A model generated the notes under the pieces. That model had not been told where the DNA came from. It saw nothing but the letters and a program-made list of their open reading frames with translations, and did not search any database. Both the position numbers and the translations under genes were made by a program. This document shows positions 1,093 through 34,522 of a stretch of 64,000 nucleotides of DNA, piece after piece (position 1 is the first letter of the stretch; the number at the start of each line of letters is the position of its first letter). The DNA comes from an uncultured Staphylococcaceae bacterium (lineage in GTDB: Bacteria > Bacillota_I > Bacilli_A > RFN20 > CAG-826), in assembly GCA_964371305.1 (NCBI GenBank), contig CAYJLA010000002.1, forward strand, positions 6,236 to 70,235. Reading direction: 5' to 3'.

Positions 1093-1986
1093 TTATTTTT
1101 CACTATTAAATATATATTCATCAATTTCTTCTTGAGTTAGAGAGTTTAATAATTGCTTTGGGTTTTCTAGATAACTTTTGAATAATTGAATTGTTTTAGC
1201 ATAATAAAAACCATGCGCAATTCTTTCATCAATTGTCATTGATAGTGGCAGAATTTCTTTTATCACAAGTTCATCATTTATTACTAAAGGACGTTTTGAT
1301 ATTTCACCAATTGTAAGAAATATTGAGTTAGTTCCTCTATTAGTTAAGTGGTGATAGCTAGCATTTAATTTTATTGAGCCTAAATTAGATATAAATACCG
1401 ATGAGTAATTCATATCAACTTTTGCAAGTGATTTTGGATACCACCCCCTATAATCTAAAAAGTTCAGAAAGCTAACTAAAGTTCTTACTAAAAAATGAGG
1501 CAATCTAGATATCGCTTTTAATTCTTGTGTTGACGGATCTAACTCAATTTCACGATTTTTGATTACTTCATGCACAATTTTCTCATGGACGCTTATAAGG
1601 GACTCGTTCTTGTCAAAATACATCATTGCCATTGCTTCACGAGCCGAATCTTTAAATTCTTTCTTTATTACAAATGATAAAGAATAATTATTTCTCTCGT
1701 AAAACTTTTTACCTTGTATAAAGTAATTCATTTTCGGTCTTAAAACGAGAGTTCTTAAAATTGCAGCTGAAACAATATGAAACGTTGTGAATCGCTTCGA
1801 CTTATCGGTAACACCATCATTTAATTCTTGCAACAAGTTATTTATTGCATCCATAGTTACAAATTCTTCAATGTATCCTTCATTGTCGCATCTATTTGGA
1901 TACATGCAACCCATCATGATATTTAGTGGTGGTTGATTTTTTAATCTTTTGCCATCATAACGATCGCCAAACTTTCTCTTTGCCAT
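1093..1986 (-). CDS. stand-alone 2-oxoacid dehydrogenase E2 / CAT-like acyltransferase catalytic-domain protein (putative)
   Basis: N-terminus MAKRKFGDRYDGKRLKN... typical of free E2-catalytic-domain proteins of Firmicutes; likely start is the internal ATG at 1986 (GGGAAG RBS-like upstream) rather than ORF-track start 2043. Confidence 0.5.
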   Translation of the reverse strand: MAKRKFGDRYDGKRLKNQPPLNIMMGCMYPNRCDNEGYIEEFVTMDAINNLLQELNDGVTDKSKRFTTFHIVSAAILRTLVLRPKMNYFIQGKKFYERNNYSLSFVIKKEFKDSAREAMAMMYFDKNESLISVHEKIVHEVIKNREIELDPSTQELKAISRLPHFLVRTLVSFLNFLDYRGWYPKSLAKVDMNYSSVFISNLGSIKLNASYHHLTNRGTNSIFLTIGEISKRPLVINDELVIKEILPLSMTIDERIAHGFYYAKTIQLFKSYLENPKQLLNSLTQEEIDEYIFNSEK

Positions 1987-2089
1987 TTCTTCCCTTTCGT
2001 TCAAAGTAAAACACACAAAACAAATCCGTTTTACAAGAAACACTTCTATTACGTTTATTTTACTTCAAAAATTAGACTAATAAAATACA

Positions 2090-2965: not shown

Positions 2966-3251
2966 CTAAGTAACCTCCTTAAAGATGTGTATTACTATTG
3001 TAGCAGTATTTTAATTTATATTATCACTACTATTATTATTAATATAGTAGAGAAAATATTTTTTAACTCTACTGTCAGTAGAAATCGTGTGTTAATCACT
3101 ATCTATTAGTATATATTATGCCAAAACTTTAAATTAAACGTATTAATAATGTGTTAATTATTTATATATTGAGCAAAGTTACAATTTAAAATAATTTTGC
3201 AATAATAATATAATTATTATATAATTGAAAAACGAAATAAGGACAATTATT

Positions 3252-4928
3252 ATGAATTTATATAAGAAAATATTTATTGCAACTACATTGTTAGTGTTAA
3301 CAAGTTGCGGTATATCAACAGAACTATCAAACAACACAAATAATAATACAAATAGTGATACAACATTTCCGGCAACTGATCCAAGTATATCGGTTAGCGC
3401 TGGTAATGTAAGTATACCTGAGGATGGTAACTCTATTCATTTAAAGGATAGCGGATCATCTACAAATTCAAGCAATGTTATCATAACTGGTGATAATATC
3501 GAAATAACTGAAATAGGCGAATACTATATTACAGGCTCTTTAAGTAATGGGAGTATTTTAATTACTGCAACCGTAGACTTAGCTGATATTTCTAATGATA
3601 CTGTAGTTTTGAACATTAACGGCGTAAGTTTAACCTCTAGTACAAAAACTCCAATTAACAGCACTTCTGATGCTAAATTAAAAATAAGAAAAGTTGAAGG
3701 GTCAACTAATATTATTACTGACAATAGAACTCGTTCAACCGATACACTATATGATTATAACAACAACGGTGAAGGTGCAATTTTTTCCAATAAAAGAATG
3801 GATATCATTGGACATGGAACACTACAAGTTAAAGGACTATATAATCATGGATTACAAAGTGACAAAACTATCGGTGTAAAAAATGGTAAGTTATACATTC
3901 AAGCATACAATGAAGCAATTAGAAGTGATGTGGGTATTCATGTTGGAGAGTACGATGAACAAACGAATGCTTTGGAAGGTGGATATGTACAAATTTCAAC
4001 AACAACTGGTCATGGTTTGTTTTCAAACGTTAAAACAAATGATGTTGTTGATGAAAGATTTGGGATTTATGTTTGGGATGGTGAATTAATTATAAATGCA
4101 ATAGAAGGTGACGCTATTAAAAGTGAAACCGATGTTTACATTAAAGATGGCAATCTTACACTGAGCACAAGCAACTATTATGTAGCTATTCAAGATCAAG
4201 AGATTGAAAAAGCTGGTAATGGCGATGCTATTCAAGCCGATTACGATTTAACAATTGATGGTGGTAACATTAACGTTGTAAAATCATATAAAGGTTTTAA
4301 AGCACTAAATATTTACATTAATGGTGGCACTCATAAAATAGTTTCAGAAGGTGATGGTATTGCAACAAACATATTGGCGGAAATGTCATCAAGCATTGAA
4401 TCAACAATTGTCATCGCTGGCGGAGTTACATCTATTTTGAGTTTTAAAGACGGCATGCAGCTTGAAAAAGGTGGGGAAATGACCGGTGGCACACTTGCCA
4501 TTTCTTCAGGAACTGTTGGTATCAAGTCGGATTTTAATAACTTTATAGTAACTGGCGGAACACTTTTTGGACAATTCAATCATATTATTGGTCGTGTGAA
4601 TTTTACGGGTACCCAAATTGTTAAAACTAGCTATTTAAATGTGAATACAACAAGTAACTTGGTCGAAGAAGGTTCATATTATGTTGCAAAACTTGACGGT
4701 ACAAATATATCACATGCATTACAGGTTGAACTAGATCTACAAAATCATTATGCAGACAATAAACCTGCATATGAATTAGCAGCTAAATATATGTTTTATT
4801 CGACACCTGGAATTAATGATGCGTACAGCATTCAAATTGGAAAATGTAGTAATCTTAGTGGACAAACAGAAATTATAAATAACTTATCATCTGGAGGAAC
4901 ATCAAGCGACTTTGTTCGTTTTAGTTAA
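3252..4928 (+). CDS. beta-helix carbohydrate-binding-domain lipoprotein (Cthe_2159/DUF4353-like)
   Basis: AAGGA RBS 9 nt before ATG 3252; LVLTSCG lipobox; repetitive G-x-x-I/V-x-I beta-helix-like rungs; resembles Cthe_2159-family proteins. Confidence 0.5.
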   Translation: MNLYKKIFIATTLLVLTSCGISTELSNNTNNNTNSDTTFPATDPSISVSAGNVSIPEDGNSIHLKDSGSSTNSSNVIITGDNIEITEIGEYYITGSLSNGSILITATVDLADISNDTVVLNINGVSLTSSTKTPINSTSDAKLKIRKVEGSTNIITDNRTRSTDTLYDYNNNGEGAIFSNKRMDIIGHGTLQVKGLYNHGLQSDKTIGVKNGKLYIQAYNEAIRSDVGIHVGEYDEQTNALEGGYVQISTTTGHGLFSNVKTNDVVDERFGIYVWDGELIINAIEGDAIKSETDVYIKDGNLTLSTSNYYVAIQDQEIEKAGNGDAIQADYDLTIDGGNINVVKSYKGFKALNIYINGGTHKIVSEGDGIATNILAEMSSSIESTIVIAGGVTSILSFKDGMQLEKGGEMTGGTLAISSGTVGIKSDFNNFIVTGGTLFGQFNHIIGRVNFTGTQIVKTSYLNVNTTSNLVEEGSYYVAKLDGTNISHALQVELDLQNHYADNKPAYELAAKYMFYSTPGINDAYSIQIGKCSNLSGQTEIINNLSSGGTSSDFVRFS

Positions 4929-4933
4929 GTTAT

Positions 4934-5656
4934 ATGGCGGGCTCATTTAAAAGAAAAGAACTAAAATACTTAGTAAATGATGTGCAAATGAAGACTCTTT
5001 TGGATGCGGCAAAACAATATACAGAATTCGATAAATTTTCAGTAAACGGAGAATTTTACCATATAAAAAATGTTTATTTCGATAATGTAAATAGCGATAT
5101 GATTCGCTTATCCGTAGGAAAACCAAAATTCAAAGAAAAAATTCGCGCAAGACAGTACGGTTTTGACGAAACACTTCCAATTTACTTAGAGTTGAAGAAA
5201 AAAATTCAAGGAATTGTGGTCAAAAGAAGAATATCTATTTCAAAAGATGACTTTACTAAATTTTGTATAGACAATACATTGCCAGAAAAAAACAAACCAT
5301 TAAATAAATTTATTTGCGAAGAAATTAAGTTTTGCATGCAAAAATTTGGTAAAATAATACCGATGATACAAATTAATTATGATCGTCTCGCATTATTCAA
5401 TAAAGAAGGTCAACCATATTTAAGGATGACATTTGATAAAAATTTGAAAGCGAAAAGAAAAAATATTGATTTTAAAGAAGGTGAAATGTATTATTTACTA
5501 GATGAAGGAACCTATATTGTAGAAATCAAAGTAAAAGATGCCACGCCTTTATGGTTGACAAAAGTATTAGGTGAACATCAAATTTATAGAGCATCGTATT
5601 CTAAATATGGTAAAGAATACCAAAATTTATATTTATTAAATGATAAGGAGAATTAA
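4934..5656 (+). CDS. VTC (polyphosphate-polymerase-like / triphosphate tunnel) domain protein
   Basis: N-terminal KRKELKYLV motif and ~240 aa size typical of bacterial VTC-domain proteins; 5 nt after upstream gene. Confidence 0.6.
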   Translation: MAGSFKRKELKYLVNDVQMKTLLDAAKQYTEFDKFSVNGEFYHIKNVYFDNVNSDMIRLSVGKPKFKEKIRARQYGFDETLPIYLELKKKIQGIVVKRRISISKDDFTKFCIDNTLPEKNKPLNKFICEEIKFCMQKFGKIIPMIQINYDRLALFNKEGQPYLRMTFDKNLKAKRKNIDFKEGEMYYLLDEGTYIVEIKVKDATPLWLTKVLGEHQIYRASYSKYGKEYQNLYLLNDKEN

Positions 5657-5659
5657 TTT

Positions 5660-6367
5660 ATGGATATGTTTAAATCAGTATTTGATGTATTTTCTGGAAC
5701 TCAGACTTACATCGCAATCGTTTTGGTTATACTAGTAGCATTATTGCTTGGTCTATTGATAGCGTTAGGTTACTGGTTCATTAATCGAAATAGTTTTATG
5801 AACAAGCAAGTTGCAATCGCTATAGTTGTTATTCCAGCTAGTTTGTCAATTTTTATGGCCTTATTTAACTTAAGAGCTACGGAGTTAGCAGTTTCATTCG
5901 GTGCTAGTATTTTGGTATCTGGATTATTCATAACAAGGTTTAGAAGTGCTCCTGTTGAAATACTTGATTTGGCGTTAATATCGTTATCTACATTTGTAGG
6001 ACTTGGTGCTGGATTAGGGTATATTTCATATGCTGCAATTGGTGCAATAGTTGTAATAGGTGCATATGTTGGTGTTTCTCACATTAAATTATTTAAACAT
6101 GATAACTGTGAAAAAGACGTTAGGATTTTGGTGCCAGAAAGTCTAGATTATGAACACTTATTTGATGATATATTTAAACAATATTGCGTAAGAAAAACTT
6201 TGGTTAAAACTAAGACAATCGATTATGGACAACTATTTGAGTTAAGATATATTGTAAAGTTTAAAAATAATATCAATGAAAGAGAATTTATTGATAAGAT
6301 TAGAATTTTAAATGGAAATATGATGGTTATTGTCGCTGCAAGAAACCTAAATGTAGTTCAAAAATAA
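5660..6367 (+). CDS. DUF4956 domain membrane protein
   Basis: 4 TM N-terminal half, TRFRSAP and LFELRY motifs, soluble C-terminal half; characteristic partner of VTC-domain genes. Confidence 0.6.
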   Translation: MDMFKSVFDVFSGTQTYIAIVLVILVALLLGLLIALGYWFINRNSFMNKQVAIAIVVIPASLSIFMALFNLRATELAVSFGASILVSGLFITRFRSAPVEILDLALISLSTFVGLGAGLGYISYAAIGAIVVIGAYVGVSHIKLFKHDNCEKDVRILVPESLDYEHLFDDIFKQYCVRKTLVKTKTIDYGQLFELRYIVKFKNNINEREFIDKIRILNGNMMVIVAARNLNVVQK

Positions 6368-6368
6368 C

Positions 6369-7433
6369 ATGGAAAATATTGAAGAAGTAAAACAGCAGAC
6401 AAGATTTCAAAAAGCAATTGCCTATCTATCAATTACATCATCTGGTATGGCACTTGGTCTTTTTGCAACACTTATTATCGGCGTAGTTATAAGTGAAGTA
6501 GGTAAAGCTATTGGATATGTTCCAATTGATCAAATTGGAATTATTTTAAAGTCGCTTATGGGCGCTGGAATAGCTTTAGGTATTGCTCTTACATTAAAAC
6601 AAAATAGTTTACTTGAAATAGTATCATGTATGGTTGTTGGCGCTATTGCTACATCACTTACATATAATGATACTTATCAATTCACATTTGCTTTAAATTC
6701 AAATGGCAATCCATTGATGGCTTATTTAGTTGTTATTATTACAATTGCACTTACTAAGTTAATTTTAATTAAAAAAACACCAATTGATATTATTTTGGTT
6801 CCTTTGTTATATGTAGTAATAGGTTCTTTAATTACGTTTGGATTAATTATACCAATTACAATTATTATTGATGGTATAGAGATATTTGTAAGCACTGCTA
6901 CAACATATCAACCGTTTTTAATGGGAATTGTAATTGCGGTGGTTATGGGTATGTGTTTAACTGCTCCTATATCTTCAGTCGCAATAGCAATAGCAATAAA
7001 TTTATCTGGTATTGGTGGTGGCGCAGCAGCAGTTGGTTGTTGTGTTCAAATGGTTGGTTTTGCCACCCAATCTGCAAGAGAAAATAACATAGGAAAAGTT
7101 TTGTCGGTAGGCATTGGGACATCTATGCTTCAGTACTCAAATATAATCAAAAACCCACGTATTTGGTTGCCTACAATTATTACTTCAGCAATACTTGGGC
7201 CGTTATCAACAACTGTCTTCATGTTAGAATCTTCATCTATTGGTGCTGGTATGGGAACTTGTGCTTTATTAGGTCCGATTCAACTTATTATTACTACTCA
7301 GAAAATCAATGTAGCACTTGCATGGAGCGGAACAATAGTTCTTTGTATTGTTGCACCAATCATAATGGTGTTTTTGCTTGATTTAGCACTGCGAAAAATT
7401 AACTGGATAAAAGAAGGAGACCTAAGATTATAA
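6369..7433 (+). CDS. polytopic membrane protein, PfoR / PTS-EIIC_2-like (putative)
   Basis: 354 aa, ~10 TM helices, glycine-rich GIGGGAAAVG loop; resembles PF13303 family; assignment tentative. Confidence 0.4.
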   Translation: MENIEEVKQQTRFQKAIAYLSITSSGMALGLFATLIIGVVISEVGKAIGYVPIDQIGIILKSLMGAGIALGIALTLKQNSLLEIVSCMVVGAIATSLTYNDTYQFTFALNSNGNPLMAYLVVIITIALTKLILIKKTPIDIILVPLLYVVIGSLITFGLIIPITIIIDGIEIFVSTATTYQPFLMGIVIAVVMGMCLTAPISSVAIAIAINLSGIGGGAAAVGCCVQMVGFATQSARENNIGKVLSVGIGTSMLQYSNIIKNPRIWLPTIITSAILGPLSTTVFMLESSSIGAGMGTCALLGPIQLIITTQKINVALAWSGTIVLCIVAPIIMVFLLDLALRKINWIKEGDLRL

Positions 7434-7446
7434 GGTCTCTTTTTTA
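7417..7446 (+). terminator. rho-independent terminator (hairpin GAGACCT/AGGTCTC + T-run), overlaps stop codon of 6369..7433
   Basis: 7-bp GC-containing stem 7417-7423/7433-7439, 9-nt loop, TTTTTT 7440-7446; A-rich on the other side, may act bidirectionally for pepT. Confidence 0.6.
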
Positions 7447-7477
7447 ATATTTAAATCAATTTTTGCAGATATTTTTA

Positions 7478-8674
7478 TTAAACTGCTGCGATTTGAAGAG
7501 CGATTTTAACTAAAATTTCCATTTCTTCAAGTACGGCATATTCATGACGAGAATGATGATTATAAGATCCAGTACCAAGATTAATCATAGGTACTCCTAA
7601 GTATGTTATTCTTGCCCCATCAGTGCCACCTCTTATCGGTTTAAATTCATATTTTAAATTAAGTATATCAAATGCTTTTTCTGCACACTTCACGACTTGT
7701 AAGTTGTCTTTTATGACTTCGTACATGTTTAGATATTGTTCTTTTACTTCATATGTAATCTTACTTGTTGGGTATTGATTTTGAATTTTATTAATACATT
7801 CAATAATTGCTTCAACTCTATTTTTTGCAAGGTTCAAATCATGATCTCTAATTATCAGTGAAAATTTTATTTCGTCACTGGTGCCATTGATGTCACATAA
7901 ATGATAAAAACCTTCTCTATTTTCAGTGTAAAAAGGAGTTTCTTTTGGAGGCAATATGTTTGCCAATTTAGAAAATACTTCAATTGCGTTAACCATTATA
8001 CCTTTTGCATCTCCTGTATGAATCGAAACGCCGGTAATTGTAATATCCATTCCGAAAGCATTAAAGTTTTCTATATTTATTTCATTGTATGCTCCTCCAT
8101 CAAAAGTGTATGCATACTTAGCTTTAAATAAATCATTATTAAAGTAATCTGCTCCTCTACCAATTTCTTCATCTGGTGTAAAAAGTATGTAAACAGTACG
8201 CCTTAGTTGTTGAGGTAACTTAACATACCGTTCAATGAAATCCATTATAATTGCGACACCGCACTTATCATCTCCGCCAAGTAACGTTGTTCCATCAGTA
8301 ACAATTAATGTTTTGCCAATATGATTATTTAATGTTGGGTAATTAATAATATCTATTTTGTATTCTTTATTCAAAGCAATATCTTGTCCATCATAATTTT
8401 CAATTACTCTTGGCATAACATTTTTACCACTAACATCGCTTGCAGTATCTACATGAGCACAAAATCCAATAGCGTCATATTTTAGATTTCCTTCAATAGT
8501 GCAATATAGGCGTCCATATTTATCTAAAATAGGAGTGAGGCCAAAATTTTTCAATTGTTCTAGCAAGATATTTTGTAAGACTAATTGATTCGTAGAGGAT
8601 GGTGTAGAAAGGCTATTTTCATCCGAAGTAGTATATATTTTTGTATATTTTATAAAATTATCAAGTAATGACAT
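7478..8674 (-). CDS. pepT: peptidase T (tripeptide aminopeptidase, M20B)
   Basis: Full-length similarity pattern to PepT (metal-binding His/Asp/Glu blocks, ~400 aa); GGAG RBS before ATG at 8674. Confidence 0.88.
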   Translation of the reverse strand: MSLLDNFIKYTKIYTTSDENSLSTPSSTNQLVLQNILLEQLKNFGLTPILDKYGRLYCTIEGNLKYDAIGFCAHVDTASDVSGKNVMPRVIENYDGQDIALNKEYKIDIINYPTLNNHIGKTLIVTDGTTLLGGDDKCGVAIIMDFIERYVKLPQQLRRTVYILFTPDEEIGRGADYFNNDLFKAKYAYTFDGGAYNEINIENFNAFGMDITITGVSIHTGDAKGIMVNAIEVFSKLANILPPKETPFYTENREGFYHLCDINGTSDEIKFSLIIRDHDLNLAKNRVEAIIECINKIQNQYPTSKITYEVKEQYLNMYEVIKDNLQVVKCAEKAFDILNLKYEFKPIRGGTDGARITYLGVPMINLGTGSYNHHSRHEYAVLEEMEILVKIALQIAAV

Positions 8675-8851
8675 AATGTATCTCCATTCTAATAACATTA
8701 TATCTTAATTTATGACATATATGTCGTATGTTTATTGTTATAATACGTTTCAAGAAAACAGTAACTAAAGTTATATAAAAGTTGTTTTATTAATTTATTA
8801 TTATTATTAAAGCAAAGGGCTTACTTAATGTACATTTAAGAGGATTGTAAT

Positions 8852-9601
8852 ATGAAGAATATTAAAATTAGATTTTCAACTTTATTGCTTATTGTGCCAC
8901 TTGTTGCAAGTTGTGGTGAAAGTATGACAACGTTGAGAAATCGTGCTTTAGAGACAATTGAAAATATGAATGAATGGAGCAGAAAGGGAACTGTTACAAC
9001 ATATCTTGATGTTGTTGATGAAGGCGCAATTATTGAAGAGGGATCCAGTGTTGATTTTGATGAGCTCGAGTATATAAATTATGAAATGTACAATAGTTTG
9101 GATGGAAACTATAAAATATATCAACAAGTATCTTATGATAGAGATAATTCAACATTATATATTATAAACTTTAACGAGTTTAGTGGGACTAATACCATCG
9201 CAAAAGAACAACTGGATTATAATGCTGCAAAGAATGATTTTATGGAATTGGCAAATGATAATAAGTGGACATATATTTTTGATAACACCCTGCATACATT
9301 AAAAGAATCACTTAATAATAGCGAGTTTGATTATTATCACGGCGATAATGAAGGTGGTTCAACATATGTTCTAAAAGATGAAAAAAATCATATGTTTAGA
9401 TATCAACCTGAAAATGAATATATATTTTATGTTGTAGATGGTGGTGCTGATTTTGTAGGCAATAATGATGATCAAACAACAGCTGTTATTTTAGATAATT
9501 TTGAAATTACTAATTCATTTCTTGATCTTGCTACAAAAAACAATGTATCAATAGAAGAATTCTTAAGTAATATTGAACAATATAACTTTGACACAAACTA
9601 A
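8852..9601 (+). CDS. hypothetical lipoprotein
   Basis: MKNIKIRFSTLLLIVPLVASCG signal peptide + lipobox; acidic Asn/Asp/Tyr-rich mature part. Confidence 0.6.
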   Translation: MKNIKIRFSTLLLIVPLVASCGESMTTLRNRALETIENMNEWSRKGTVTTYLDVVDEGAIIEEGSSVDFDELEYINYEMYNSLDGNYKIYQQVSYDRDNSTLYIINFNEFSGTNTIAKEQLDYNAAKNDFMELANDNKWTYIFDNTLHTLKESLNNSEFDYYHGDNEGGSTYVLKDEKNHMFRYQPENEYIFYVVDGGADFVGNNDDQTTAVILDNFEITNSFLDLATKNNVSIEEFLSNIEQYNFDTN

Positions 9602-9686
9602 ATAGTTGTACACATTATTTGAACTCAATTATACATATAACTTTATTTTTACTAATTATAATTGTATTATAATATACGGAAATATT

Positions 9687-10184
9687 ATGTGGAATAAAGA
9701 GAATTTAAACTTAATACAATTTAATCCTTACACTGAGATAAAAAACGTGTGGTTTTTATTAACCATTAAAAGTGGCGATAAATACAATTCAATGACTTGC
9801 TCCTGGGGAAGTACGGGCGTGTTATGGAATAAAAATGTATTTAATGTTTTTGTAAGGCACTCTCGCTACAGTCATGAGTTCATTGAAAGTGCTGAATATT
9901 TTACTATTTCTTTTTTTGATTTAGATAAAAGATCGATTTTGCAAGAATTAGGCACAAAAAGTGGAAGAGAAATCGATAAAATGAACATTAAAGGTATAAC
10001 ACCTATTGAAATAGAACCAGGGTGTATTGTCTATGAAGAGGCTTTTAAAGTAATTACATGTAAAAAATTACATAAAACTTTGATTGATATTTCATCACTG
10101 GAAGATATTAAAACTACATTTTACCCTAAAAACGATATGCATGATATGTATATTGGAGAAATTTTAAATATATACACCAAATAA
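9687..10184 (+). CDS. flavin reductase-like (FMN-binding split-barrel) domain protein
   Basis: MWNKENLNLIQFNPY... pattern typical of flavin reductase family; start moved to ATG 9687 (first 27 codons of ORF-track call are AT-rich, no RBS). Confidence 0.55.
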   Translation: MWNKENLNLIQFNPYTEIKNVWFLLTIKSGDKYNSMTCSWGSTGVLWNKNVFNVFVRHSRYSHEFIESAEYFTISFFDLDKRSILQELGTKSGREIDKMNIKGITPIEIEPGCIVYEEAFKVITCKKLHKTLIDISSLEDIKTTFYPKNDMHDMYIGEILNIYTK

Positions 10185-10195
10185 AGGAGATTTTT

Positions 10196-11902
10196 ATGTT
10201 TGATTTTATGAAAGAGTTTGATAAGTGGAAGAAATACTCATTAGAGGACGCTGACTTAATTAAAGAAATTGAAAATCTTAACGAAGTAGATAAAATAAAA
10301 GAACGTTTTATTAAAGATTTAGAGTTTGGTACTGCTGGTTTACGCGGGGAAATCGGTGTAGGCACAAATAGAATGAATATTTACGTTGTTAGAAGAACAA
10401 CACAAGCTCTTGCTGACTATGTTAATGAAAATTATACACAACCAAGTGTTTCCATTGCATATGATTCACGACATAAATCCGATTTATTCTCTAAAGAAGC
10501 TGCAAAAGTGCTTGTGGCTAACGGGATTAGAGTTTATTTGTATGATCGTTTAATGCCGACACCTTTATTATCTTGGGCAGTTAGATATTTTGAGTCTTCT
10601 GCAGGAATAATGATTACTGCATCACATAATCCAAGACAATATAATGGGTATAAAGCATACGACAATAATGGTTGTCAAATTGGCGAAGAAATTGCAAATG
10701 ATATACTTGCTCGCATTTCAAAATTAGATACGCTTAATAGCGCTAAAATAAAAGATTTTGATGAAGCAATTAAAGATGGTAGTATCACATACATAAATCA
10801 AAAATGTATTGAAGATTATTATTCATATTGTAAAGGTTTAATGTTTGATAACAATAAGACTAAAAATATTAAAATAGTTTATTCTGCTATGAATGGGTGT
10901 GGATATGAACCGGTGACAAAGTTATTTGACCAACTAAACTATAAAAACGTAGATATAGTAAAAGAGCAAGCGCATCCAGATGGAGATTTTACAACTGCAA
11001 ATTATCCAAATCCAGAAACAAAAGAAGCCATGTCGCTTGGTATGAAATATCAAAGGGAACTCAATAGTGATATATTCCTTGCAACGGATCCAGATTGTGA
11101 TAGATGCAACGCCAGTATAATGCATAACGACGAAATAGTTTTATTAAATGGAAATCAAATTGGAATAGTTTTATTTAATTATATCTATAATAGGCGTTTA
11201 GAGGCGAAAACTTTACCTAGTAAACCGTTTATCGTAAAAACAATTGTATCGACTGATTTGGTGTCTTTAATTGCGAAAAAACGTGGTGTGGAAGTTATTG
11301 AAACACTCACAGGGTTTAAATATATTGGTGAGGCGATTGAAGATTCAATTATTGACGGTCAAGGAAGAGAGTTTATATTCGGTTTTGAAGAATCGATTGG
11401 GTTTTTATCTGGAACGCAAGTAAGAGATAAAGACGCTGTTAATTCTACATTATTAATTGCTGAAGCCGCTCAATACTATAAAGACCAAAATAAAACATTT
11501 ATCGATGTATTGGATGAACTATATAAAGAATTTGGCTATCACATTTCTCATACAGAAGCATTTAGTTTTCCTGGGCTAGATGGAATGAAAAAAATGGACG
11601 CTATTATCGATGCTTTTAGGAATAAATTTATTAATAGTGTAATGGATTTAGAAGCGTATGAAGATTATTTAACTTCCAAAAAATATTATAGAGATGGACA
11701 TAGCGAAGATATAAATTTACCTAAATCAAATGTCTTATCATTTTACTTTAAGGGTTGCAATAGAGTGTTAGTAAGGCCATCAGGCACAGAACCTAAACTA
11801 AAAATATACTTTATGGCGTGTGGTGAAAACCTAACTAGCGCTAACGAAGCATTGAACCACTATAAAACAATATTTGAAAATATTGTTAAAACATTTAGTT
11901 AA
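10196..11902 (+). CDS. pgcA: phosphoglucomutase / phosphomannomutase family phospho-sugar mutase
   Basis: GTAGLRG, TASHNP active-site serine loop, 568 aa; AAAGGAG RBS. Confidence 0.85.
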   Translation: MFDFMKEFDKWKKYSLEDADLIKEIENLNEVDKIKERFIKDLEFGTAGLRGEIGVGTNRMNIYVVRRTTQALADYVNENYTQPSVSIAYDSRHKSDLFSKEAAKVLVANGIRVYLYDRLMPTPLLSWAVRYFESSAGIMITASHNPRQYNGYKAYDNNGCQIGEEIANDILARISKLDTLNSAKIKDFDEAIKDGSITYINQKCIEDYYSYCKGLMFDNNKTKNIKIVYSAMNGCGYEPVTKLFDQLNYKNVDIVKEQAHPDGDFTTANYPNPETKEAMSLGMKYQRELNSDIFLATDPDCDRCNASIMHNDEIVLLNGNQIGIVLFNYIYNRRLEAKTLPSKPFIVKTIVSTDLVSLIAKKRGVEVIETLTGFKYIGEAIEDSIIDGQGREFIFGFEESIGFLSGTQVRDKDAVNSTLLIAEAAQYYKDQNKTFIDVLDELYKEFGYHISHTEAFSFPGLDGMKKMDAIIDAFRNKFINSVMDLEAYEDYLTSKKYYRDGHSEDINLPKSNVLSFYFKGCNRVLVRPSGTEPKLKIYFMACGENLTSANEALNHYKTIFENIVKTFS

Positions 11903-18691: not shown

Positions 18692-19198
18692 ATGAATAAT
18701 AGAGATTTTGTTCGCAATGTCGTTACAAATGGCGTTATTGCGGCGTTGTATTTTACAATTACAGCACTTACAGTAGGTATATCCTTTTTAGGAATTCAGT
18801 TTAGATTTGCTGAAATACTGGTACTGTTGTGCTTTTTTAATAAAAAATATATTGTAGGAATAACAATTGGCACAATGCTCGCTAATACTCTTTCACCAAT
18901 CACCATGTACTGGGATATGTTATTTGGAACACTTGCAACTGTGATTTCATGCTTGTGCATCATGTATTCTAAACAATTGCTTGTTGCGCTAATTTTCCCA
19001 ATAGTATTTAATGCCTTTATAGTCGGTGCTGAATTATACTACATTATGCAGTTGCCATTCTGGATTAATGTTGGTTATGTAGCTCTTGGTCAAACAGTTG
19101 TACTTGCGATCGGATATATTGTATATATGACAACTATGAAACAGCCATACTTCCAAAAAACTATTGGCGCTGACCAAAATTTAGAATTCAAATTTTAA
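18692..19198 (+). CDS. queT: QueT family queuosine-precursor transporter (putative)
   Basis: 168 aa, 5-6 TM small membrane protein immediately downstream of preQ1-like element; same locus as tgt/queA/queH. Confidence 0.55.
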   Translation: MNNRDFVRNVVTNGVIAALYFTITALTVGISFLGIQFRFAEILVLLCFFNKKYIVGITIGTMLANTLSPITMYWDMLFGTLATVISCLCIMYSKQLLVALIFPIVFNAFIVGAELYYIMQLPFWINVGYVALGQTVVLAIGYIVYMTTMKQPYFQKTIGADQNLEFKF

Positions 19199-19289
19199 TG
19201 TAAATATTTTTATATAACTAATTGCTCTTTTTTCTTTAAACGTGATAATTACGAGATTATTTCTTGATTAATAAGTTTTTATCTTTTTA

Positions 19290-19336
19290 CAAATATGTGC
19301 AATGTATTTGCAATGCACATATTTGTAAAGTATAAT
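19290..19336 (+). promoter_or_regulatory. sigma-A promoter (TTGCAA-17-TATAAT) embedded in a perfect 12-bp inverted repeat operator CAAATATGTGCA-N12-TGCACATATTTG
   Basis: -35 19308-19313, -10 19331-19336; IR arms 19290-19301 and 19314-19325; directly upstream of antitoxin gene. Confidence 0.6.
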
Positions 19337-19353
19337 GAAAATAGGTGAAATTT

Positions 19354-19608
19354 ATGAAAACAAAAAATATAACATTAAGAATTGATGAAGACATAAAAGA
19401 AAAGGCTGATGCACTTTTTAAAGAACTTGGTATGAGTATTAATACAGCATTTAACCTATTCTTAAAACAAAGTATAAGAAACCAAGCATTTCCTTTTCCA
19501 ATAACTAAGAAGGCGCAAGAAATCGCTATGATAGAAAATGATGATACAGAACTTGATTTGACCGAAACATTCAAATCACTTCAAGCGATGAAGAAAAAAA
19601 GTAAATAG
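19354..19608 (+). CDS. RelB/DinJ family antitoxin (ribbon-helix-helix)
   Basis: NITLRIDEDIKEKADALFKELGMSINTAFNLFLKQ classic DinJ/RelB N-terminus; AGGTGA RBS 5 nt before ATG 19354 (ORF-track start 19345 is GTG within RBS). Confidence 0.7.
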   Translation: MKTKNITLRIDEDIKEKADALFKELGMSINTAFNLFLKQSIRNQAFPFPITKKAQEIAMIENDDTELDLTETFKSLQAMKKKSK

Positions 19609-19627
19609 TTATGTTATAATAAAATAA

Positions 19628-20035
19628 ATGAAGACATATATTATAACAGCAAGCTTAATAGTGTTCTCGTGTGTTCTTGTCGCAGCATATTCAATTTTTA
19701 ATGTCATTTTTCCTTATTGCGAATCATTTTCTTCACCAAATGTCAGCGAAATTACAAATTACTCGATAGTGTATAGGCATGATAATCAAGAGGAAAAAGT
19801 TGAAGCAGAGATAGATTTGCTACTTGAATTTTTTGAAAAGTCAAAACCGACACGCAAAACAAGCTATAATGATTACCCAAACACTAATTCTTATTATGAA
19901 GTTAAAATTAATTTATCAACGAATATATATACATATTTTATTTATCAAAGTTACTTTAGTGTACTTTTAGAAAAACCTTATTATGGTGTATTTAGTATTT
20001 CGCGAGACGTTCTCGAACTATTAAAGCATCCCTAA
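19628..20035 (+). CDS. hypothetical membrane-anchored/secreted small protein
   Basis: 135 aa, N-terminal hydrophobic segment; no toxin-like features; no SD. Confidence 0.4.
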   Translation: MKTYIITASLIVFSCVLVAAYSIFNVIFPYCESFSSPNVSEITNYSIVYRHDNQEEKVEAEIDLLLEFFEKSKPTRKTSYNDYPNTNSYYEVKINLSTNIYTYFIYQSYFSVLLEKPYYGVFSISRDVLELLKHP

Positions 20036-20052
20036 TATTTACATAAGTATAA

Positions 20053-21218
<1,166 letters not shown>

Positions 21219-21219
<1 letters not shown>

Positions 21220-22244
21220 TGGACATTTCTTTATTTGATTTTAATCTGCCAGAAGAATTAATATCCCAAAACCCTTCTATTAAAAGAGATGAATCTAAAT
21301 TACTCATCTGCAATAAGAAAGAACAAACCTTGGAAGATAAGCGGTTTTTTAATATTATTGATTATTTAAAAAAAGGCGACATACTAGTCAGGAATAACAC
21401 AAAAGTTTTGCCTGTAAGACTTTATGGAGTGAAAAAGATTACTAATGCAAAAGTAGAAGTAGTTTTATTAAAAAACATTAAAGATGATATTTGGGAATGT
21501 TTAGTTGGTAATGCCAAAGTTGTAAAAGTAGGGGTAGAAATCTCTTTTGGTAATGATGACTTAGTGGCAAAATGTATCGAAACAAAAGACGAAGGAATAA
21601 GAATATTAGATTTTTCTTATAACGGTATATTCGTTGAAATATTAGATAAAATTGGAAATATGCCATTACCGCCTTATATAAAAGAGCAACTAGTAAGTAA
21701 TGACCGCTACCAGACTATTTATGCAAAGCATATAGGAAGTTCTGCTGCACCAACAGCTGGATTTCATTTTACTGAAGAATTAGTTAGACAACTTGAATTA
21801 ATGGGTGTAGAGATTCTGGATATAACATTACATATAGGATTAGGCACTTTTAGACCGGTAAAAGTAAATAATACAGATGATCATATTATGCATGAAGAAG
21901 AATTTGAAATGTCAGCGGAAGTAGCAACAAAACTTAACGTGGCAAAAAGCGAAGGAAGAAGAATTATTGCTGTAGGAACAACAAGTGTTAGAACCTTAGA
22001 AGCTATATATTCTAAATATGGCACTTTTATAGAAGCCAAAGAGTCAACAAGTATTTTTATCTTCCCTGGTTATACATTTAAATGCGTTGATGCCATCATT
22101 ACTAACTTTCATCTTCCAAAGTCCACACTCATTATGTTAGTTTCAGCTTTTTTAGGAAGAGAATTTGCTTTAAAAGCATATGAACATGCAATCGAGAATA
22201 AATATAAGTTTTTTTCGTTTGGAGATAGTTCGTTTTTGTATTAA
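21219..22244 (+). CDS. queA: S-adenosylmethionine:tRNA ribosyltransferase-isomerase
   Basis: MDISLFDFNLPEELISQNP N-terminus and full-length QueA pattern; start overlaps tgt stop. Confidence 0.9.
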
Positions 22245-22246
22245 TT

Positions 22247-22879
22247 ATGGAAGAAAAAATAAATTATCATAAGCAAATGCTTAAACAATTAGAAGCAATA
22301 GGGAATAGTAAACCAACAATTTTATTACATGCTTGTTGTGGTCCGTGTGGAGCATATCCAATTGTCTTATTGTCGATGTATTTTAAAGTTACAGTATATT
22401 ACAATAGTGAAAATGTGTATCCAATCGACGAATACAATAAACGCTTTTATGCACTAGAATCATTAATAAATCAATTAAATGAAGAAGGCAATGATGTTAA
22501 ACTAGTGAAAAAAGTTACATACATGTATGAAGAATATGAAAAACACTTAGATTTAGTAAATGATCACAGAGAAGGTGGTAGTAGATGTAAGTTTTGCTAT
22601 AAAAAAAGAATGGAAGAAGGGTTTCATTATGCAAGAGAGCATAATTTTGATTACTATACGACTGTAATGACCTCTTCTAGGCAGAAATCTTCTCAAGTAA
22701 TGAATGAGATAGGAAACATACTTAAAGTCCGTTATAAAGGTGTTAATTACCTTAATAGTGATTTTAAGAAAGATGATGGAATCATAAAAGGAAACGAAAT
22801 AGTTTCTAGATGTAACATATACAGACAAAATTACTGTGGTTGTAGATATTCATTACAAGATAGAAAAAACATAAACTAA
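22247..22879 (+). CDS. queH: epoxyqueuosine reductase QueH (DUF208)
   Basis: LLHACCGPC motif, 210 aa, additional Cys residues for Fe-S; adjacent to queA. Confidence 0.8.
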   Translation: MEEKINYHKQMLKQLEAIGNSKPTILLHACCGPCGAYPIVLLSMYFKVTVYYNSENVYPIDEYNKRFYALESLINQLNEEGNDVKLVKKVTYMYEEYEKHLDLVNDHREGGSRCKFCYKKRMEEGFHYAREHNFDYYTTVMTSSRQKSSQVMNEIGNILKVRYKGVNYLNSDFKKDDGIIKGNEIVSRCNIYRQNYCGCRYSLQDRKNIN

Positions 22880-23577: not shown

Positions 23578-24372
23578 ATGAAAAAACTTATATATTTGTT
23601 GATGGTTATGGTACTAATTGGATGTACACCAGAAAATATTGGACCTGTTGAAAAAAATTTGATTATAGAAATGGTTGAAAAACAAAAGGAAAATGCGGTA
23701 GACAATACATCTTTTGGATTTACACACTTTGATTATTCTAACGTAGGGACATTTAATAATTCTCATACTGAAGTAATAACAGGAATTGACGGAACCATCA
23801 TTACAGCAAACAAAAATCAGTTATATTACTCTGAAGCTAGTCTATATAATCACGATTATAAACAGTATTTTTATGATGAAGATTCGAGTTATTTTTATAT
23901 ATTAACTGGTAATGAAGAAGATGGAACATATTCTGGCACTAAACAATTGATGAATAAAGCAAGTGCCATTAATTACGTTGATGACAATACTACCTTTAAT
24001 AACGACTATGATAAGTATATAAGCTCCTTTGATTTTATACTTAATATACTAGATACTTATGATGCATATTTTTATAGTGAAAATGGCCGCCTTGGTTTAG
24101 ATGAAGTAAATATAAGTAAAGAATTTGACTTAGTTATTAACCGTCAAAATGAAATTTCATATATTATTCGCTTTAGTAATGAACAAGTCATAAACGTTAT
24201 GAGTTATATGTTGGATGAAAATGATAAAAGAAATAATACAATTTTTTCAAACGAAATAAATGAATGCATCCGTTTTTCGTATATGAACTTAAATGCAGAC
24301 TTTAAAAACATTCTTCAAACCGATCCTAGTGAACTACTTAAATACAACATAACCGATATTACTGTAGAATAA
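23578..24372 (+). CDS. hypothetical lipoprotein
   Basis: AAGGAG RBS; MKKLIYLLMVMVLIGCT lipobox. Confidence 0.65.
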   Translation: MKKLIYLLMVMVLIGCTPENIGPVEKNLIIEMVEKQKENAVDNTSFGFTHFDYSNVGTFNNSHTEVITGIDGTIITANKNQLYYSEASLYNHDYKQYFYDEDSSYFYILTGNEEDGTYSGTKQLMNKASAINYVDDNTTFNNDYDKYISSFDFILNILDTYDAYFYSENGRLGLDEVNISKEFDLVINRQNEISYIIRFSNEQVINVMSYMLDENDKRNNTIFSNEINECIRFSYMNLNADFKNILQTDPSELLKYNITDITVE

Positions 24373-24405
24373 AAAAATCGCAAGAATTATATCTTACGAT
24401 TTTTG
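24371..24405. terminator. bidirectional terminator between convergent lipoprotein genes
   Basis: A7-ATCGCAAGA-loop-TCTTACGAT-T5; one C:A mismatch in stem. Confidence 0.45.
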
Positions 24406-24434
24406 TAGCAAGTAATTAGACAAATACTATTAAA

Positions 24435-26270
24435 CTAAGCCACACCAAGAACAATAGGGGTGTTGTTTGTTGGAATGTTTTCAGGTATATGTTCTCCTGT
24501 ATTTTCTGTATATAGAAACGTTTTTACATCTTGAATACTTGAGTGTATATTTTCGATATAAGAATGGTATTGAATGCCAACATTATCATCTTTAACAATC
24601 ATTTCTATGGTATTAGTAAAACCTATGGTTGGGCTCCCCCCCTTTTGACTAATAGAATATAATTCTTTAGTTCCAAATACATGATTACTAATGCCGCTTA
24701 AAAAATATGAAGCATTAGCTAATTCAACACTTATGTTAGTTGTAGTTGTTGTATCATTGTTGTCAATCATGATATTTACTTCAACTTGTTCACCTCCATC
24801 AATAAAATTAACAGTTGATTGAAACAAACCATCACCAAACCCAGCAATTTCTATGCTTTCAATCTCTTCAACTGAAAATATGTTGTTGCTATAAGTTATA
24901 TTGTTATATATAGTGTTAAATGCATCCGTTTCTGTTTTATACAACAATTCTTGAGTCATTATAAGTGCATCGTGTATATAACCGCTAGTAGTGAAGTCTC
25001 CTCCTATATCATAGAAATGATTAGTAAAATCAATTATTTCTGTATTTTGCTGCATTAAATATGTGTATAAACTTGAATCATTAGTAATTTCTGTAACACT
25101 TTCTGCGTTAGCGTCGTACAATGGTAAATCGTCGCTATCTGCTGGCGGAGTAAGCATAGTAATAAGTTTTTCTATTGCAATATACGAGTTGTGGACAGTT
25201 TCGTATTCGTCAACAGGTCCTTCATCGTCAGTTACACTAGGTATTGGTATTTGACTAACACTGCCTTCATTTCCAAAACCACCTGTAATTGGTATGCTCG
25301 AAAGTGATACAAATTCATCAGTGTCAAATTCGATATTCAATGCTTCATTATATGTTGTTAAAGGTCCGTTTTCCTCAACTAGTTTGTCATACCTTTCTTC
25401 ATTAGTTGTTTTAAGTTTGTCTTTTAATAAAGCGGCACCTGCAAGCATTTCATCATCAGAGGTATTTCCGTCTCTATTTGTAAATTCTTCATCATGTATT
25501 TTGCCATCAGAGAAAACCTCCGCATAAAATGAGTCAAAACCATCTTTTTCCGAATATGTAAATAGTACATTTTTCATAGTAGCAACATTAAAGTATAAGT
25601 GCTGAACTGATTTCTCTTCATTTGTATTAGTTTCTAAAGTATAAGAGAAACCATAGTTAGTTGTAGAATAATCAAATACTTCAAAATAGATATTAACTGT
25701 ACCCTCTAAATCATCTGCAATAGGAACATTCATGGATTCCAAAAACTCTCTTTGATCATAAGTTGTGTGCGAAGTTAGCAAATCTTCACCGTCAAACCCA
25801 GTAATAGTGAAGTTTGTAAGTATGTTTTTAAACGCTGTGAGTAATCCATTAGCATTTACGTTTGATGAAGCAGTAACAGTAGAATTAATGTTATCAAATG
25901 AATAGCTAAATGCTTCATCACCCAATTGTCTCAGAGTTTCTTGCGTTGCTTTTGCAACAACATAATAGACAGAAAGGTACCCCTGATATAACACCTGAGC
26001 ACCACTGCTATCATAAAATTCTCCATTTTCGTACATGTAGTCCATGAATGATGAAACACTATCGAATATGTTATCAACATTCTTCTTTGTGTCAATTGCA
26101 TTTGAACGTCTTGTCTTGGTTGCATTTTCATGGTTTTTAGTAAGTGCAGTGTTTGTTTTGTCGATCATTGCGATACCACGTTGAGCATCTGTTTGCGTAG
26201 GATTGCACGATGCCAGTACAGTAAGAGATAATGCCGCTAATGCAAGCGATGTATAAATTCTTTTTTTCAT
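24435..26270 (-). CDS. large hypothetical lipoprotein (611 aa)
   Basis: MKKRIYTSLALAALSLTVLASCN lipobox; Asn/Thr/Asp-rich mature protein. Confidence 0.65.
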   Translation of the reverse strand: MKKRIYTSLALAALSLTVLASCNPTQTDAQRGIAMIDKTNTALTKNHENATKTRRSNAIDTKKNVDNIFDSVSSFMDYMYENGEFYDSSGAQVLYQGYLSVYYVVAKATQETLRQLGDEAFSYSFDNINSTVTASSNVNANGLLTAFKNILTNFTITGFDGEDLLTSHTTYDQREFLESMNVPIADDLEGTVNIYFEVFDYSTTNYGFSYTLETNTNEEKSVQHLYFNVATMKNVLFTYSEKDGFDSFYAEVFSDGKIHDEEFTNRDGNTSDDEMLAGAALLKDKLKTTNEERYDKLVEENGPLTTYNEALNIEFDTDEFVSLSSIPITGGFGNEGSVSQIPIPSVTDDEGPVDEYETVHNSYIAIEKLITMLTPPADSDDLPLYDANAESVTEITNDSSLYTYLMQQNTEIIDFTNHFYDIGGDFTTSGYIHDALIMTQELLYKTETDAFNTIYNNITYSNNIFSVEEIESIEIAGFGDGLFQSTVNFIDGGEQVEVNIMIDNNDTTTTTNISVELANASYFLSGISNHVFGTKELYSISQKGGSPTIGFTNTIEMIVKDDNVGIQYHSYIENIHSSIQDVKTFLYTENTGEHIPENIPTNNTPIVLGVA

Positions 26271-26538
26271 TAAGTAGTTCTCCTTAATTTAATAATCGAT
26301 TTAATTATATATTAACTAATTACTTTTTACAACGAATAGTACCATGATTGCGAGTAACTATGAATTTAACTTCCATTAGTTGTGGAATGTACAACATTAA
26401 CAAATGGATAGAAGTTGTTTATGCAATTTGTAGATAATTTATAGATATATATTAATTTATAAAGACAATTAAGCATCATGAATTGCGTGTGTATTCCTTT
26501 TAGACTATAATTTTCTTAAGAAAGAAACGAATTTACTT

Positions 26539-27480: not shown

Positions 27481-27508
27481 AGAATTTTTGTAAATATATT
27501 TTCCGTTA

Positions 27509-27545
27509 TAGTTTTGTCTACCTTTATAGCAGTTTTGTCATATTT
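27509..27545 (+). promoter_or_regulatory. direct-repeat cis-element copy 1 (tAGTTTTGTC-N12-gcAGTTTTGTC), candidate response-regulator operator
   Basis: Near-identical copy at 53768..53804; related copies at 34440..34473, 44139..44154, 29141..29175, 26413..26444. Confidence 0.5.
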
Positions 27546-27610
27546 TTTTATGCAAATGCTACCAATATAATAAACATATAAGCGTTTACATGCAAAAATA
27601 AGGAGAAAAT

Positions 27611-29095: not shown

Positions 29096-29103
29096 AATAG
29101 TTC

Positions 29104-29131
29104 AAAGGGCCGATTAGTTTCGGCCCTTTTT
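29104..29131 (+). terminator. rho-independent terminator GGGCCG-loop-CGGCCC + T5
   Basis: GC-rich 6-bp stem 29107-29112/29121-29126. Confidence 0.7.
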
Positions 29132-29255
29132 ATATTAATTTGCAGTTTATTATGCTATTAATGCAGTTTTATGCCATTTATACAAAAGGAAAAGATTGAT
29201 ACAATTTTATTATCGAACAATAGATAATGTTTTAAAATATAAAGGAAGGTAAAAT

Positions 29256-32533: not shown

Positions 32534-32547
32534 AGTTGTAATTTATT

Positions 32548-32573
32548 AAAGGCAGATTTTCTGCCTTTTTTTA
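32548..32573 (+). terminator. rho-independent terminator AGGCAG-loop-CTGCCT + T7
   Basis: stem 32550-32555/32561-32566. Confidence 0.7.
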
Positions 32574-34473: not shown

Positions 34474-34522
34474 TTATGGTTATTTACTAAATATGAGAAA
34501 ATTAAAATGTGAAGGAGTTTTT

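Follow-up and report, generated by a model that had tools for sequence, protein, structure and literature searches.

The window analysed here is a stretch of 64,000 nucleotides (nt) from an uncultured Staphylococcaceae bacterium (contig CAYJLA010000002.1 of assembly GCA_964371305.1, positions 6,236 to 70,235 of the forward strand), with a G+C content of approximately 30%. Close to its start lie the genes for a Cthe_2159-family lipoprotein, a VTC-domain protein and a DUF4956 membrane protein, which are the subject of this work. A first reading of the window, made from the letters alone and referred to here as the sequence-only reading, had described them as three tightly packed genes with gaps of 5 and 3 nt, and these distances are exact. 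A fourth gene, encoding a PTS_EIIC_2-family membrane protein, follows after a gap of 1 nt and shares the operon. All four genes lie on the + strand. A divergent DegV gene (2090-2965, - strand) flanks them upstream and a convergent M20 peptidase gene (7478-8698, - strand) downstream, and the features of the operon are collected in Table 1. Two of the genes, those for the VTC and DUF4956 proteins, belong together in many other genomes, often beside a gene for an exported partner, and a possible role of this module in polyphosphate synthesis at the membrane is discussed below.

Table 1. Features of the four-gene operon, with positions counted from the first letter of the window (aa, amino acids)
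Feature	Position	Strand	Basis
Promoter-like hexamers TTTAAA/TTTGCA-17/18-TATAAT and Shine-Dalgarno sequence AAGGA (3239-3243)	3185..3243	+	Consensus scan
Cthe_2159-family lipoprotein, 558 aa	3252..4928	+	Pfam PF14262
VTC-domain protein, 240 aa	4934..5656	+	Pfam PF09359
DUF4956 membrane protein, 235 aa	5660..6367	+	Homologues, and PF16316 below threshold
PTS_EIIC_2-family membrane protein, 354 aa	6369..7433	+	Pfam PF13303, E 1.9e-77
Intrinsic-terminator-like hairpin, core GAGACCT...AGGTCTC, then TTTTTT	7411..7445	+	Sequence and RNA fold

The lipoprotein gene is separated from the divergent DegV gene by an AT-rich gap of 286 nt. This gap holds promoter-like hexamers with 10 out of 12 consensus matches, a resemblance by consensus only and in an AT-rich region. 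At the other end of the operon, the hairpin overlaps the stop codon of the EIIC_2 gene. Its predicted folding energy is -15.7 kcal/mol (z -3.9), and none of 200 shuffled sequences was equally stable. It is the sole convincing terminator found and is predicted to mark the end of the operon. Because the EIIC_2 gene starts 1 nt after the DUF4956 gene and the only convincing terminator lies behind it, the genes form a four-gene operon and not a trio. The EIIC_2 protein matches PF13303 above threshold (261 bits) and is an orphan permease, without EIIA or EIIB genes nearby. When it was compared by phmmer with all open reading frames (ORFs) of 81 related loci, which are described below, no counterpart was found beside VTC-DUF4956 in any of them. 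In view of this lack of co-occurrence, it was rejected as a functional member of the module, and its gene is most likely an operon passenger outside the conserved unit. In NCBIfam, no model was found for any of the four operon proteins, nor for the corresponding module of Paenibacillus.

The three Pfam models that the sequence-only reading had assigned to the first three genes were searched, and PF14262 (Cthe_2159) and PF09359 (VTC) scored above threshold, while PF16316 (DUF4956) scored below it. The VTC protein matches PF09359 over the whole profile (E 5.4e-38, 131.3 bits with a cut-off of 23, profile positions 1-235 of 235). It is a soluble single-domain protein with neither an SPX domain nor a transmembrane (TM) segment, and its nearest homologue is 41% identical. 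Used alone as a query, it finds yeast Vtc4 in the PDB (E 1.9e-4). With a profile of 36 bacterial VTC homologues, the E value for catalytic Vtc4 falls to 1.5e-14, as compared with 1e-8 for Vtc2 and 1e-6 for Vtc3, neither of which is catalytic. A cryo-electron microscopy (cryo-EM) study of the yeast VTC complex identified K200, R264, R266, K281, Y359, R361, S457 and K458 as triphosphate ligands and E426 as a Mn2+ ligand; of these residues, only K458 is changed in the inactive Vtc2 and Vtc3. In the HMMER alignment, the first six of these ligands correspond to K11, R71, R73, K88, Y149 and R151 of the window protein, which are invariant or nearly so in the 36 bacterial homologues. In the bacterial alignment, E197 is part of an invariant M-E-I/V-K strand and S223-K224 belong to an S-K-Y-G motif that is also invariant, and by motif match only these residues would be the equivalents of Vtc4 E426, S457 and K458. 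By the same match, the lysine that separates active Vtc4 from inactive Vtc2/3 appears to have an invariant bacterial counterpart. The conserved residues suggest a link between the bacterial proteins and polyphosphate.

The public call of the VTC gene (P0001, 222 aa) begins at Met19 and loses an N-terminal strand with F5, R7, E9 and K11. Because this strand is conserved and includes the equivalent of Vtc4 K200, the start at 4934 is considered correct, and the 240-aa reading from this ATG agrees with all homologues. No Shine-Dalgarno (SD) sequence precedes this start, which lies 5 nt past the lipoprotein stop codon, and translational coupling between the lipoprotein and the VTC protein is therefore likely. 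Bacterial VTC proteins keep the glutamate E9 (in R-x-E-x-K), at the position where Vtc4 has Thr198. Many of them also close with a short conserved tail (...G-x-F/I/Y-C/S-A-COOH, for example GVFCA, GNICA or KYSA), which may be a docking or modification motif; the window protein does not carry this tail.

For the third gene, the DUF4956 call of the sequence-only reading was upheld by homologues and by profile comparison but not by the Pfam score itself, which is 24.4 bits (E 2.7e-5, profile positions 17-159 of 169) and remains below the gathering score of 30.6. The phmmer matches of the protein (E 2.6e-32 to 1e-20) are 30-38% identical over 84-95% of the length and all carry PF16316; the nearest homologue is 38% identical. 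In addition, PF16316 is matched by all 15 aligned relatives, and the window protein retains every family-invariant residue. Because of these PF16316-bearing homologues and the conserved position beside VTC, family membership is established despite the sub-threshold score, and the protein is, judged by its sequence, a divergent family member. The family contains 6,597 clusters at 50% identity, almost all of them 215-235 aa long. The gene has an SD sequence of its own (AAGGAG).

An AlphaFold model of the DUF4956 protein built from 15 sequences, with a moderate predicted local distance difference test score (pLDDT) of 69.5, places helices at 16-41, 49-70, 76-93, 101-118 and 122-141, and the C-terminus is modelled as a beta-alpha-beta-beta-alpha-beta (ACT-like) domain. 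Family-wide charge counts fit the positive-inside rule with the acidic N-terminus outside and the C-terminus inside. By this rule, the invariant R93-F94-R95-S96 loop and the ACT-like domain are cytoplasmic, on the side of the VTC enzyme. A sequence search of the PDB with DUF4956 gave nothing meaningful (FliQ, E 0.4). Two VTC-DUF4956 fusions (P0347 and P0364) were considered as Rosetta-stone evidence and rejected, as both domains are truncated and the fusions look like deletion or assembly artefacts.

A remote relationship was observed between DUF4956 and the MgtC/SapB proteins. An MgtC profile was built from E. coli YhiD and six plasmid-borne MgtC/SapB proteins (7 sequences), and hhalign matched it to DUF4956 (96%, E 2.8e-9, 126 columns) over the C-terminal half only. 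The match spans a glycine-rich helix (GLxxGxGxY), the last helix (TM4-5) and the ACT-like domain. The hhalign comparison of DUF4956 with the single YhiD sequence was insignificant, and the 7-sequence profile was needed. Against the Pfam MgtC model (PF02308), seven of the 15 DUF4956 relatives match at E values of 0.039 or higher and P0375 matches at 6e-4, while the window protein has no match to this model. MgtC/SapB proteins share the architecture of DUF4956, with several membrane helices ahead of a cytoplasmic ACT-like beta-alpha-beta-beta-alpha-beta domain, and the modelled DUF4956 structure resembles the MgtC C-domains 2lqj and 7qa5. In contrast, the N-terminal half of DUF4956, which includes the invariant RFRS loop, fails to align. 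The E-R, G-L-R-T-H and D-P-x-R-x-A-A-Q-V motifs that are invariant in the MgtC alignment are absent from the DUF4956 alignment, which has its own invariant RFRS and R-x-x-N-G-N motifs. These comparisons indicate that DUF4956 is a remote homologue of MgtC/SapB and not a member of that family. This link appears to be unreported in the literature searched.

The first gene of the operon encodes a protein that matches PF14262 (E 4.3e-46, 157.7 bits), and its nearest Cthe homologue is 33% identical. That it is a lipoprotein, as had been claimed, was borne out by an SD sequence (AAGGA) 8 nt ahead of the ATG at 3252 and by a lipobox (L-T-S-C, Cys19). The protein continues with a low-complexity N/T/S linker, a right-handed beta-helix at approximately 60-460 and a C-terminal beta domain of lower confidence. 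Its AlphaFold model, built from 55 sequences, is dominated by the long right-handed beta-helix (pLDDT 80, predicted template modelling score 0.82), which matches 4PEU/4PHB, the structures of the family's namesake. Most long family members carry a ladder of Asp/His/Glu residues on successive rungs (DDxxHSN, DDGIHAD, YEGIE, SDDGIN, GDGIDSNG, LDYD). Such a ladder is found in about 27 of the 43 operon-linked Cthe partners; about 15 of the 43 are ladder-less, including those that precede giant CotH proteins. The window lipoprotein has no ladder and also no central insert, and because the ladder is missing, its role may differ or be reduced. The sequence-only reading had described a carbohydrate-binding beta-helix. 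The beta-helix is well supported, but for this protein the term 'carbohydrate-binding' is a family label only; binding of cellulose or polygalacturonate has been reported for Cthe_2159 alone.

The recurrence of these genes was studied in one genome per GTDB species, in which at least 598 VTC relatives were found. The 80 loci nearest to the window VTC protein and one further locus (81 in total, the window being extra) were compared by ORF calling, phmmer and all-against-all clustering, and 76 of them have an intact VTC ORF. DUF4956 is the next gene on the same strand in 72 of these 76 loci, mostly with an overlapping stop/start or a junction of at most 20 nt, so that the two families, which had been described as recurrent neighbours, are near-obligate ones here. 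A Cthe_2159-family gene lies within three genes on the same strand in 35 of the 76 loci. This adjacency spans two gene orders and occurs in Paenibacillus, Enterococcus and many Clostridia. Most often the order is VTC-DUF4956-Cthe, and the order of the window, Cthe-VTC-DUF4956, is also found in four other loci (L034, L056, L065 and L081). Seven of the closest lipoprotein relatives have usable context; four of these directly follow VTC-DUF4956 (P0147, P0152, P0173 and, in Enterococcus, P0263), and three stand alone. A lipobox is present in 35 of the 43 Cthe partners, and 39 of the 43, most of the non-lipobox ones included, have a hydrophobic N-terminus that would fit a signal peptide or a membrane anchor. 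The hint at a cell-surface process in the sequence-only reading gains support from these counts. No paper linking Cthe_2159 proteins to VTC/DUF4956 was found in the literature searched, in which the systematic association appears to be unreported.

CotH kinases had also been named as frequent neighbours of the pair that are missing here. They do recur, and no CotH is encoded in the window (ORFs of six frames and Pfam scans), but they are a minority partner in this clade, as a CotH-like gene is present in 7 of the 81 loci. In four of those it comes after the Cthe gene, and in Paenibacillus alvei and Fusibacter CotH occupies the same slot as the Cthe gene. In rumen and gut Clostridia, ladder-less Cthe genes are followed by giant proteins of approximately 1,740 aa that cluster together (L024:3393-8690, L028:11257-16479, L029:11221-16455 and L069:11141-16309). 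The representative from L028 contains, according to Pfam, a divergent CotH kinase domain together with Fn3-associated and chitobiase-C domains. The four-gene form VTC-DUF4956-Cthe-CotH links the Cthe-type and CotH-type clusters. An Enterococcus faecalis plasmid record, LR962858.1 (L097, 98 kb), carries VTC-DUF4956-225aa-465aa-CotH at 5977-11107. The plasmid search gave 4 records only, and the module is therefore not typically plasmid-borne.

A divergent OmpR/PhoB-class response regulator and histidine kinase flank approximately half of the loci and are absent from the window. The best models for this kinase are PnpS (PhoR-like) and PhoR, with scores far below the cut-off, and neither PhoR nor another specific family could be assigned to the two-component system on such scores. 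Further neighbours that recur in some loci, among them NfeD/SPFH, SpoU methylase, RF-1/PrmC, DUF1385, OTCase, YfbR-like HD, GGDEF-EAL and topoisomerase genes, were rejected as partners because they reflect housekeeping synteny. The conserved unit is VTC plus DUF4956, with a frequent partner, predicted to be exported, that is a Cthe_2159 lipoprotein, a CotH protein or both. The window is a divergent member of this module, with a ladder-less lipoprotein, an upstream position of the lipoprotein gene and the extra EIIC_2 gene.

In agreement with the sequence-only reading, which saw no known function for the VTC and DUF4956 genes, the literature searched for functional work on the bacterial proteins gave only mentions of the gene cluster, in papers on the pel operon and on NELoc-2. 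The reading preferred here, with a probability of roughly 0.35, is a membrane-coupled synthesis of polyphosphate that is delivered to the cell surface. Its core would be a two-protein machine formed by a soluble Vtc4-type tunnel enzyme and the dedicated five-helix DUF4956 protein, with the VTC protein docked on DUF4956 at the inner face of the membrane. Like yeast Vtc4, the VTC protein would polymerise the gamma-phosphate of ATP, or of another nucleoside triphosphate (NTP), into polyphosphate. The polymer, or a product primed by it, would then reach the outer face by way of a DUF4956 oligomer, either through it or along it, where the tethered beta-helix lipoprotein would bind, organise or process it; in other genomes, a CotH kinase would replace or accompany the lipoprotein. 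In this scheme, we infer the polymerase activity, the physical complex, the translocation and the ligand of the lipoprotein. In its favour stand the conserved tunnel residues with the preference of the profile for Vtc4, the tight pairing with DUF4956, the frequent extracytoplasmic third component, the topology of DUF4956 and the precedent of the eukaryotic VTC complex; for translocation itself, the membrane partner and the exported component give indirect support. The link with loci that encode the cationic Pel polysaccharide would agree with an export of polyphosphate. Extracellular polyphosphate at approximately 100 uM, independent of PPK1/PPK2 and with an unknown synthase, has been described for the Bacillus cereus group in a 2026 preprint.

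Multiple points weigh against this reading. The HMMER alignment of the bacterial proteins with Vtc4 is non-significant around E426/S457/K458 and two residues out of register there. DUF4956 proteins do not match the Vtc1/DUF202 channel subunits even at E<=5, and no pore is visible in the AlphaFold monomer of DUF4956, which is of moderate confidence only. MgtC is known as a regulatory membrane protein and not as a transporter. In place of the ladder, at positions with more than 90% conservation, the window lipoprotein has V227, G324, Q328, K347, K350, G367, A371, Q403, E405 and K425. Approximately half of the VTC-DUF4956 pairs are not accompanied by a Cthe or CotH gene at a distance of up to three genes. 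In addition, bacteria tolerate cytosolic polyphosphate, so export is not required. No assay of any bacterial VTC-domain protein was found in the literature searched. B. cereus makes extracellular polyphosphate, and the authors of the preprint report no VTC4 homologue in it, so other routes to the extracellular polymer exist. The authors of a study on the pel operon of Streptococcus intermedius (10.1101/2024.04.20.589940) suggested that the polyphosphate might stay cytoplasmic and left the role open.

Cytoplasmic polyphosphate is also the closest rival to the export reading, and only slightly less probable. Here the polymer would be made and kept inside the cell, and DUF4956 would be an MgtC-like anchor or regulator with an ACT-like domain that senses a small ligand. 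Under envelope or nutrient stress, the pair would either draw down free ATP/Pi or accumulate a store of phosphate and cations, and the lipoprotein would be co-regulated or act as an outside sensor without touching the polymer. The homology with MgtC over TM4-5 and the ACT-like domain agrees with this, as do the Pfam MgtC matches of the relatives, and MgtC has a regulatory role connected with ATP and phosphate homeostasis. The pairs without a secreted partner nearby and the OmpR/PhoB-class system beside half of the loci also agree with it; the PnpS and PhoR models are to be read with their low scores in mind, and the system is missing from the window. Retention in the cytoplasm is the view favoured by the S. 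intermedius authors (10.1101/2024.04.20.589940). However, it leaves the consistent exported third gene, with its lipobox in 35 of 43 cases, or the CotH gene of the same operon unexplained, and the N-terminal half of DUF4956 with the RFRS loop has no MgtC counterpart.

A different triphosphate chemistry would be clearly less probable. The VTC protein could be a tripolyphosphatase, an NTP triphosphatase, a nucleotide cyclase as found among other CYTH enzymes, or the source of a short oligophosphate signal, with the ACT-like domain sensing the product as part of a membrane signalling switch. VTC belongs to the triphosphate tunnel metalloenzyme superfamily, for which diverse triphosphate substrates are described (PMC9582702). 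The glutamate E9 in R-x-E-x-K partly resembles the ExExK metal motif of CYTH proteins. ACT folds commonly bind small ligands. However, the bacterial proteins match the VTC model and not the generic CYTH model, their profile prefers the catalytic Vtc4, and they have Arg, like Vtc4, in the place of the first CYTH glutamate. Also, the polymerase-specific lysine (the K458 equivalent) is invariant by motif match. Least probable is a chance position of the lipoprotein, as a common type of lyase-like or plant-polysaccharide-binding protein, ahead of a VTC-DUF4956 pair with which it has nothing to do. In its favour, binding to cellulose and polygalacturonate and a resemblance to PL9 lyases are reported for Cthe_2159 itself (Close et al. 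2014), a carbohydrate-utilisation region with a GH28 enzyme is present in the window and three of the seven nearest relatives stand alone. Against it, the two genes are neighbours in as many as 35 of 76 loci, with two gene orders and from Paenibacillus and Enterococcus to many Clostridia, the 5-nt junction without an SD sequence before the VTC start suggests translational coupling, the acidic ladder expected of a Ca2+-dependent lyase-like site is absent and the carbohydrate cluster is more than 20 kb away.

A wider proposal, which is considered unlikely as it stands, is that VTC-DUF4956 would be a third bacterial polyphosphate synthase-exporter, independent of PPK1/PPK2. It would be a prokaryotic analogue of the VTC complex, with an MgtC-like conduit in the place of Vtc1, and would supply surface or extracellular polyphosphate for binding or use by beta-helix lipoproteins and/or secreted CotH kinases. 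In current reviews and papers, PPK1 and PPK2 are the only polyphosphate synthases listed for bacteria, and VTC4 is regarded as confined to eukaryotes. As judged by the GTDB matches, hundreds of Firmicute species carry a Vtc4-like catalytic domain, with its tunnel residues conserved, that is tied to a membrane protein and often to exported surface proteins. If the proposal is true, a new polyphosphate pathway would be defined, with a genetic handle on PPK-independent extracellular polyphosphate in Gram-positives. The proposal would also account for the association with CotH kinases and cationic Pel biofilm loci. Functions would also become available for the approximately 6,600 DUF4956 clusters and for a large branch of the 'carbohydrate-binding' Cthe_2159 family. 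MgtC-family proteins would perhaps be handlers of phosphate polymers more generally, which would provide a mechanistic lead on the MgtC virulence factors.

The rest of the window was also inspected. The proteins that were looked up are all singletons at 90% identity among approximately 15 billion proteins, and the window resembles a sparsely sampled low-GC lineage that uses standard stop codons. No Rfam match, and hence no rRNA or tRNA marker, was found at gathering thresholds across the whole 64 kb. Close to the operon, the proteins at 41-1087 and 8852-9601 have no Pfam family, and the latter (249 aa) has a lipobox (VASCG); the operon neighbourhood is rich in lineage-specific surface proteins. 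The protein at 1093-2043 (- strand, 316 aa) matches the C-terminal third of the 2-oxoacid dehydrogenase acyltransferase catalytic domain only (profile positions 139-231 of 232). Lipoyl and E3-binding domains are absent from it, and it may be a stand-alone acyltransferase-like protein.

Further downstream, 18692-22879 contains a queuosine salvage and synthesis block (QueT transporter, TGT, QueA and QueH) with an unannotated gap of approximately 900 nt at 19199-20094. No preQ1 riboswitch was detected upstream of queT at the Rfam gathering score. At 23578-40062, a PfkB kinase, a CE2/GDSL esterase and a GH28 plus F5/8-type-C protein are interleaved with large Pfam-less ORFs, and this region looks like a pectin/glycan utilisation island. 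The ORFs without a Pfam match at E<=1e-5 are 23578-24372, 24435-26270 (- strand, 611 aa), 27611-29095, 29256-31226, 32736-34442 and 37153-40062 (969 aa). The region 40167-54492 is a disaccharide phosphorylase locus with a YesN/YesM-type AraC response regulator and histidine kinase, an ABC sugar importer, two tandem GH65 phosphorylases, a LacI regulator and a HAD protein (beta-phosphoglucomutase-like).

The module can be compared with several known systems. Cthe_2159 of Clostridium thermocellum (PDB 4PEU/4PHB) is a polysaccharide-lyase-like beta-helix. The window protein differs from it in being a lipoprotein of about twice the length of the crystallised part and in its operon link to VTC-DUF4956. 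Furthermore, it is without the Asp/His ladder that is found in the C-terminal half of most relatives. Beside Gram-positive pel operons, cotH-'polyphosphate polymerase'-DUF4956(-DUF4832) has been described as an accessory group (Whitfield et al., 10.1101/768473). For SIR_1594-1592 of S. intermedius (10.1101/2024.04.20.589940), AlphaFold models showed a secreted CotH, a Vtc4-like tunnel with catalytic residues, and a protein of 4 TM helices with a C-terminal ACT domain. In NELoc-2 of Clostridium perfringens (PMC2879425), two VTC genes are each followed by a gene annotated as 'tubulin/FtsZ, GTPase', and a CotH gene is also present; the genes with this annotation are probably DUF4956. The pel and NELoc-2 clusters and the window have in common the VTC and DUF4956 pair with an exported partner encoded alongside. 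In contrast to the pel clusters, the window has no CotH, DUF4832 or pel genes, and its exported partner is a Cthe_2159-family lipoprotein that is placed upstream.

The closest characterised relative of the module is the eukaryotic VTC complex (Vtc4/Vtc3 or Vtc2/Vtc1), which in vacuoles and acidocalcisomes acts as both polymerase and translocase of polyphosphate. Both share the catalytic fold and family (PF09359) with conserved triphosphate- and Mn2+-binding residues, and in both the enzyme is tied genetically to a dedicated small multi-helix membrane protein. The yeast cryo-EM study showed that the eukaryotic complex couples this fold to a membrane channel. Unlike its eukaryotic relative, the bacterial enzyme has no SPX sensor domain or fused TM domain, and its partner is DUF4956, with five TM helices and an MgtC-related ACT-like domain, instead of the three-helix Vtc1/DUF202. 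The Cthe_2159 lipoprotein and/or CotH partners are without a eukaryotic counterpart. In addition, the bacterial module would be located at the cytoplasmic membrane, where translocation would mean export.

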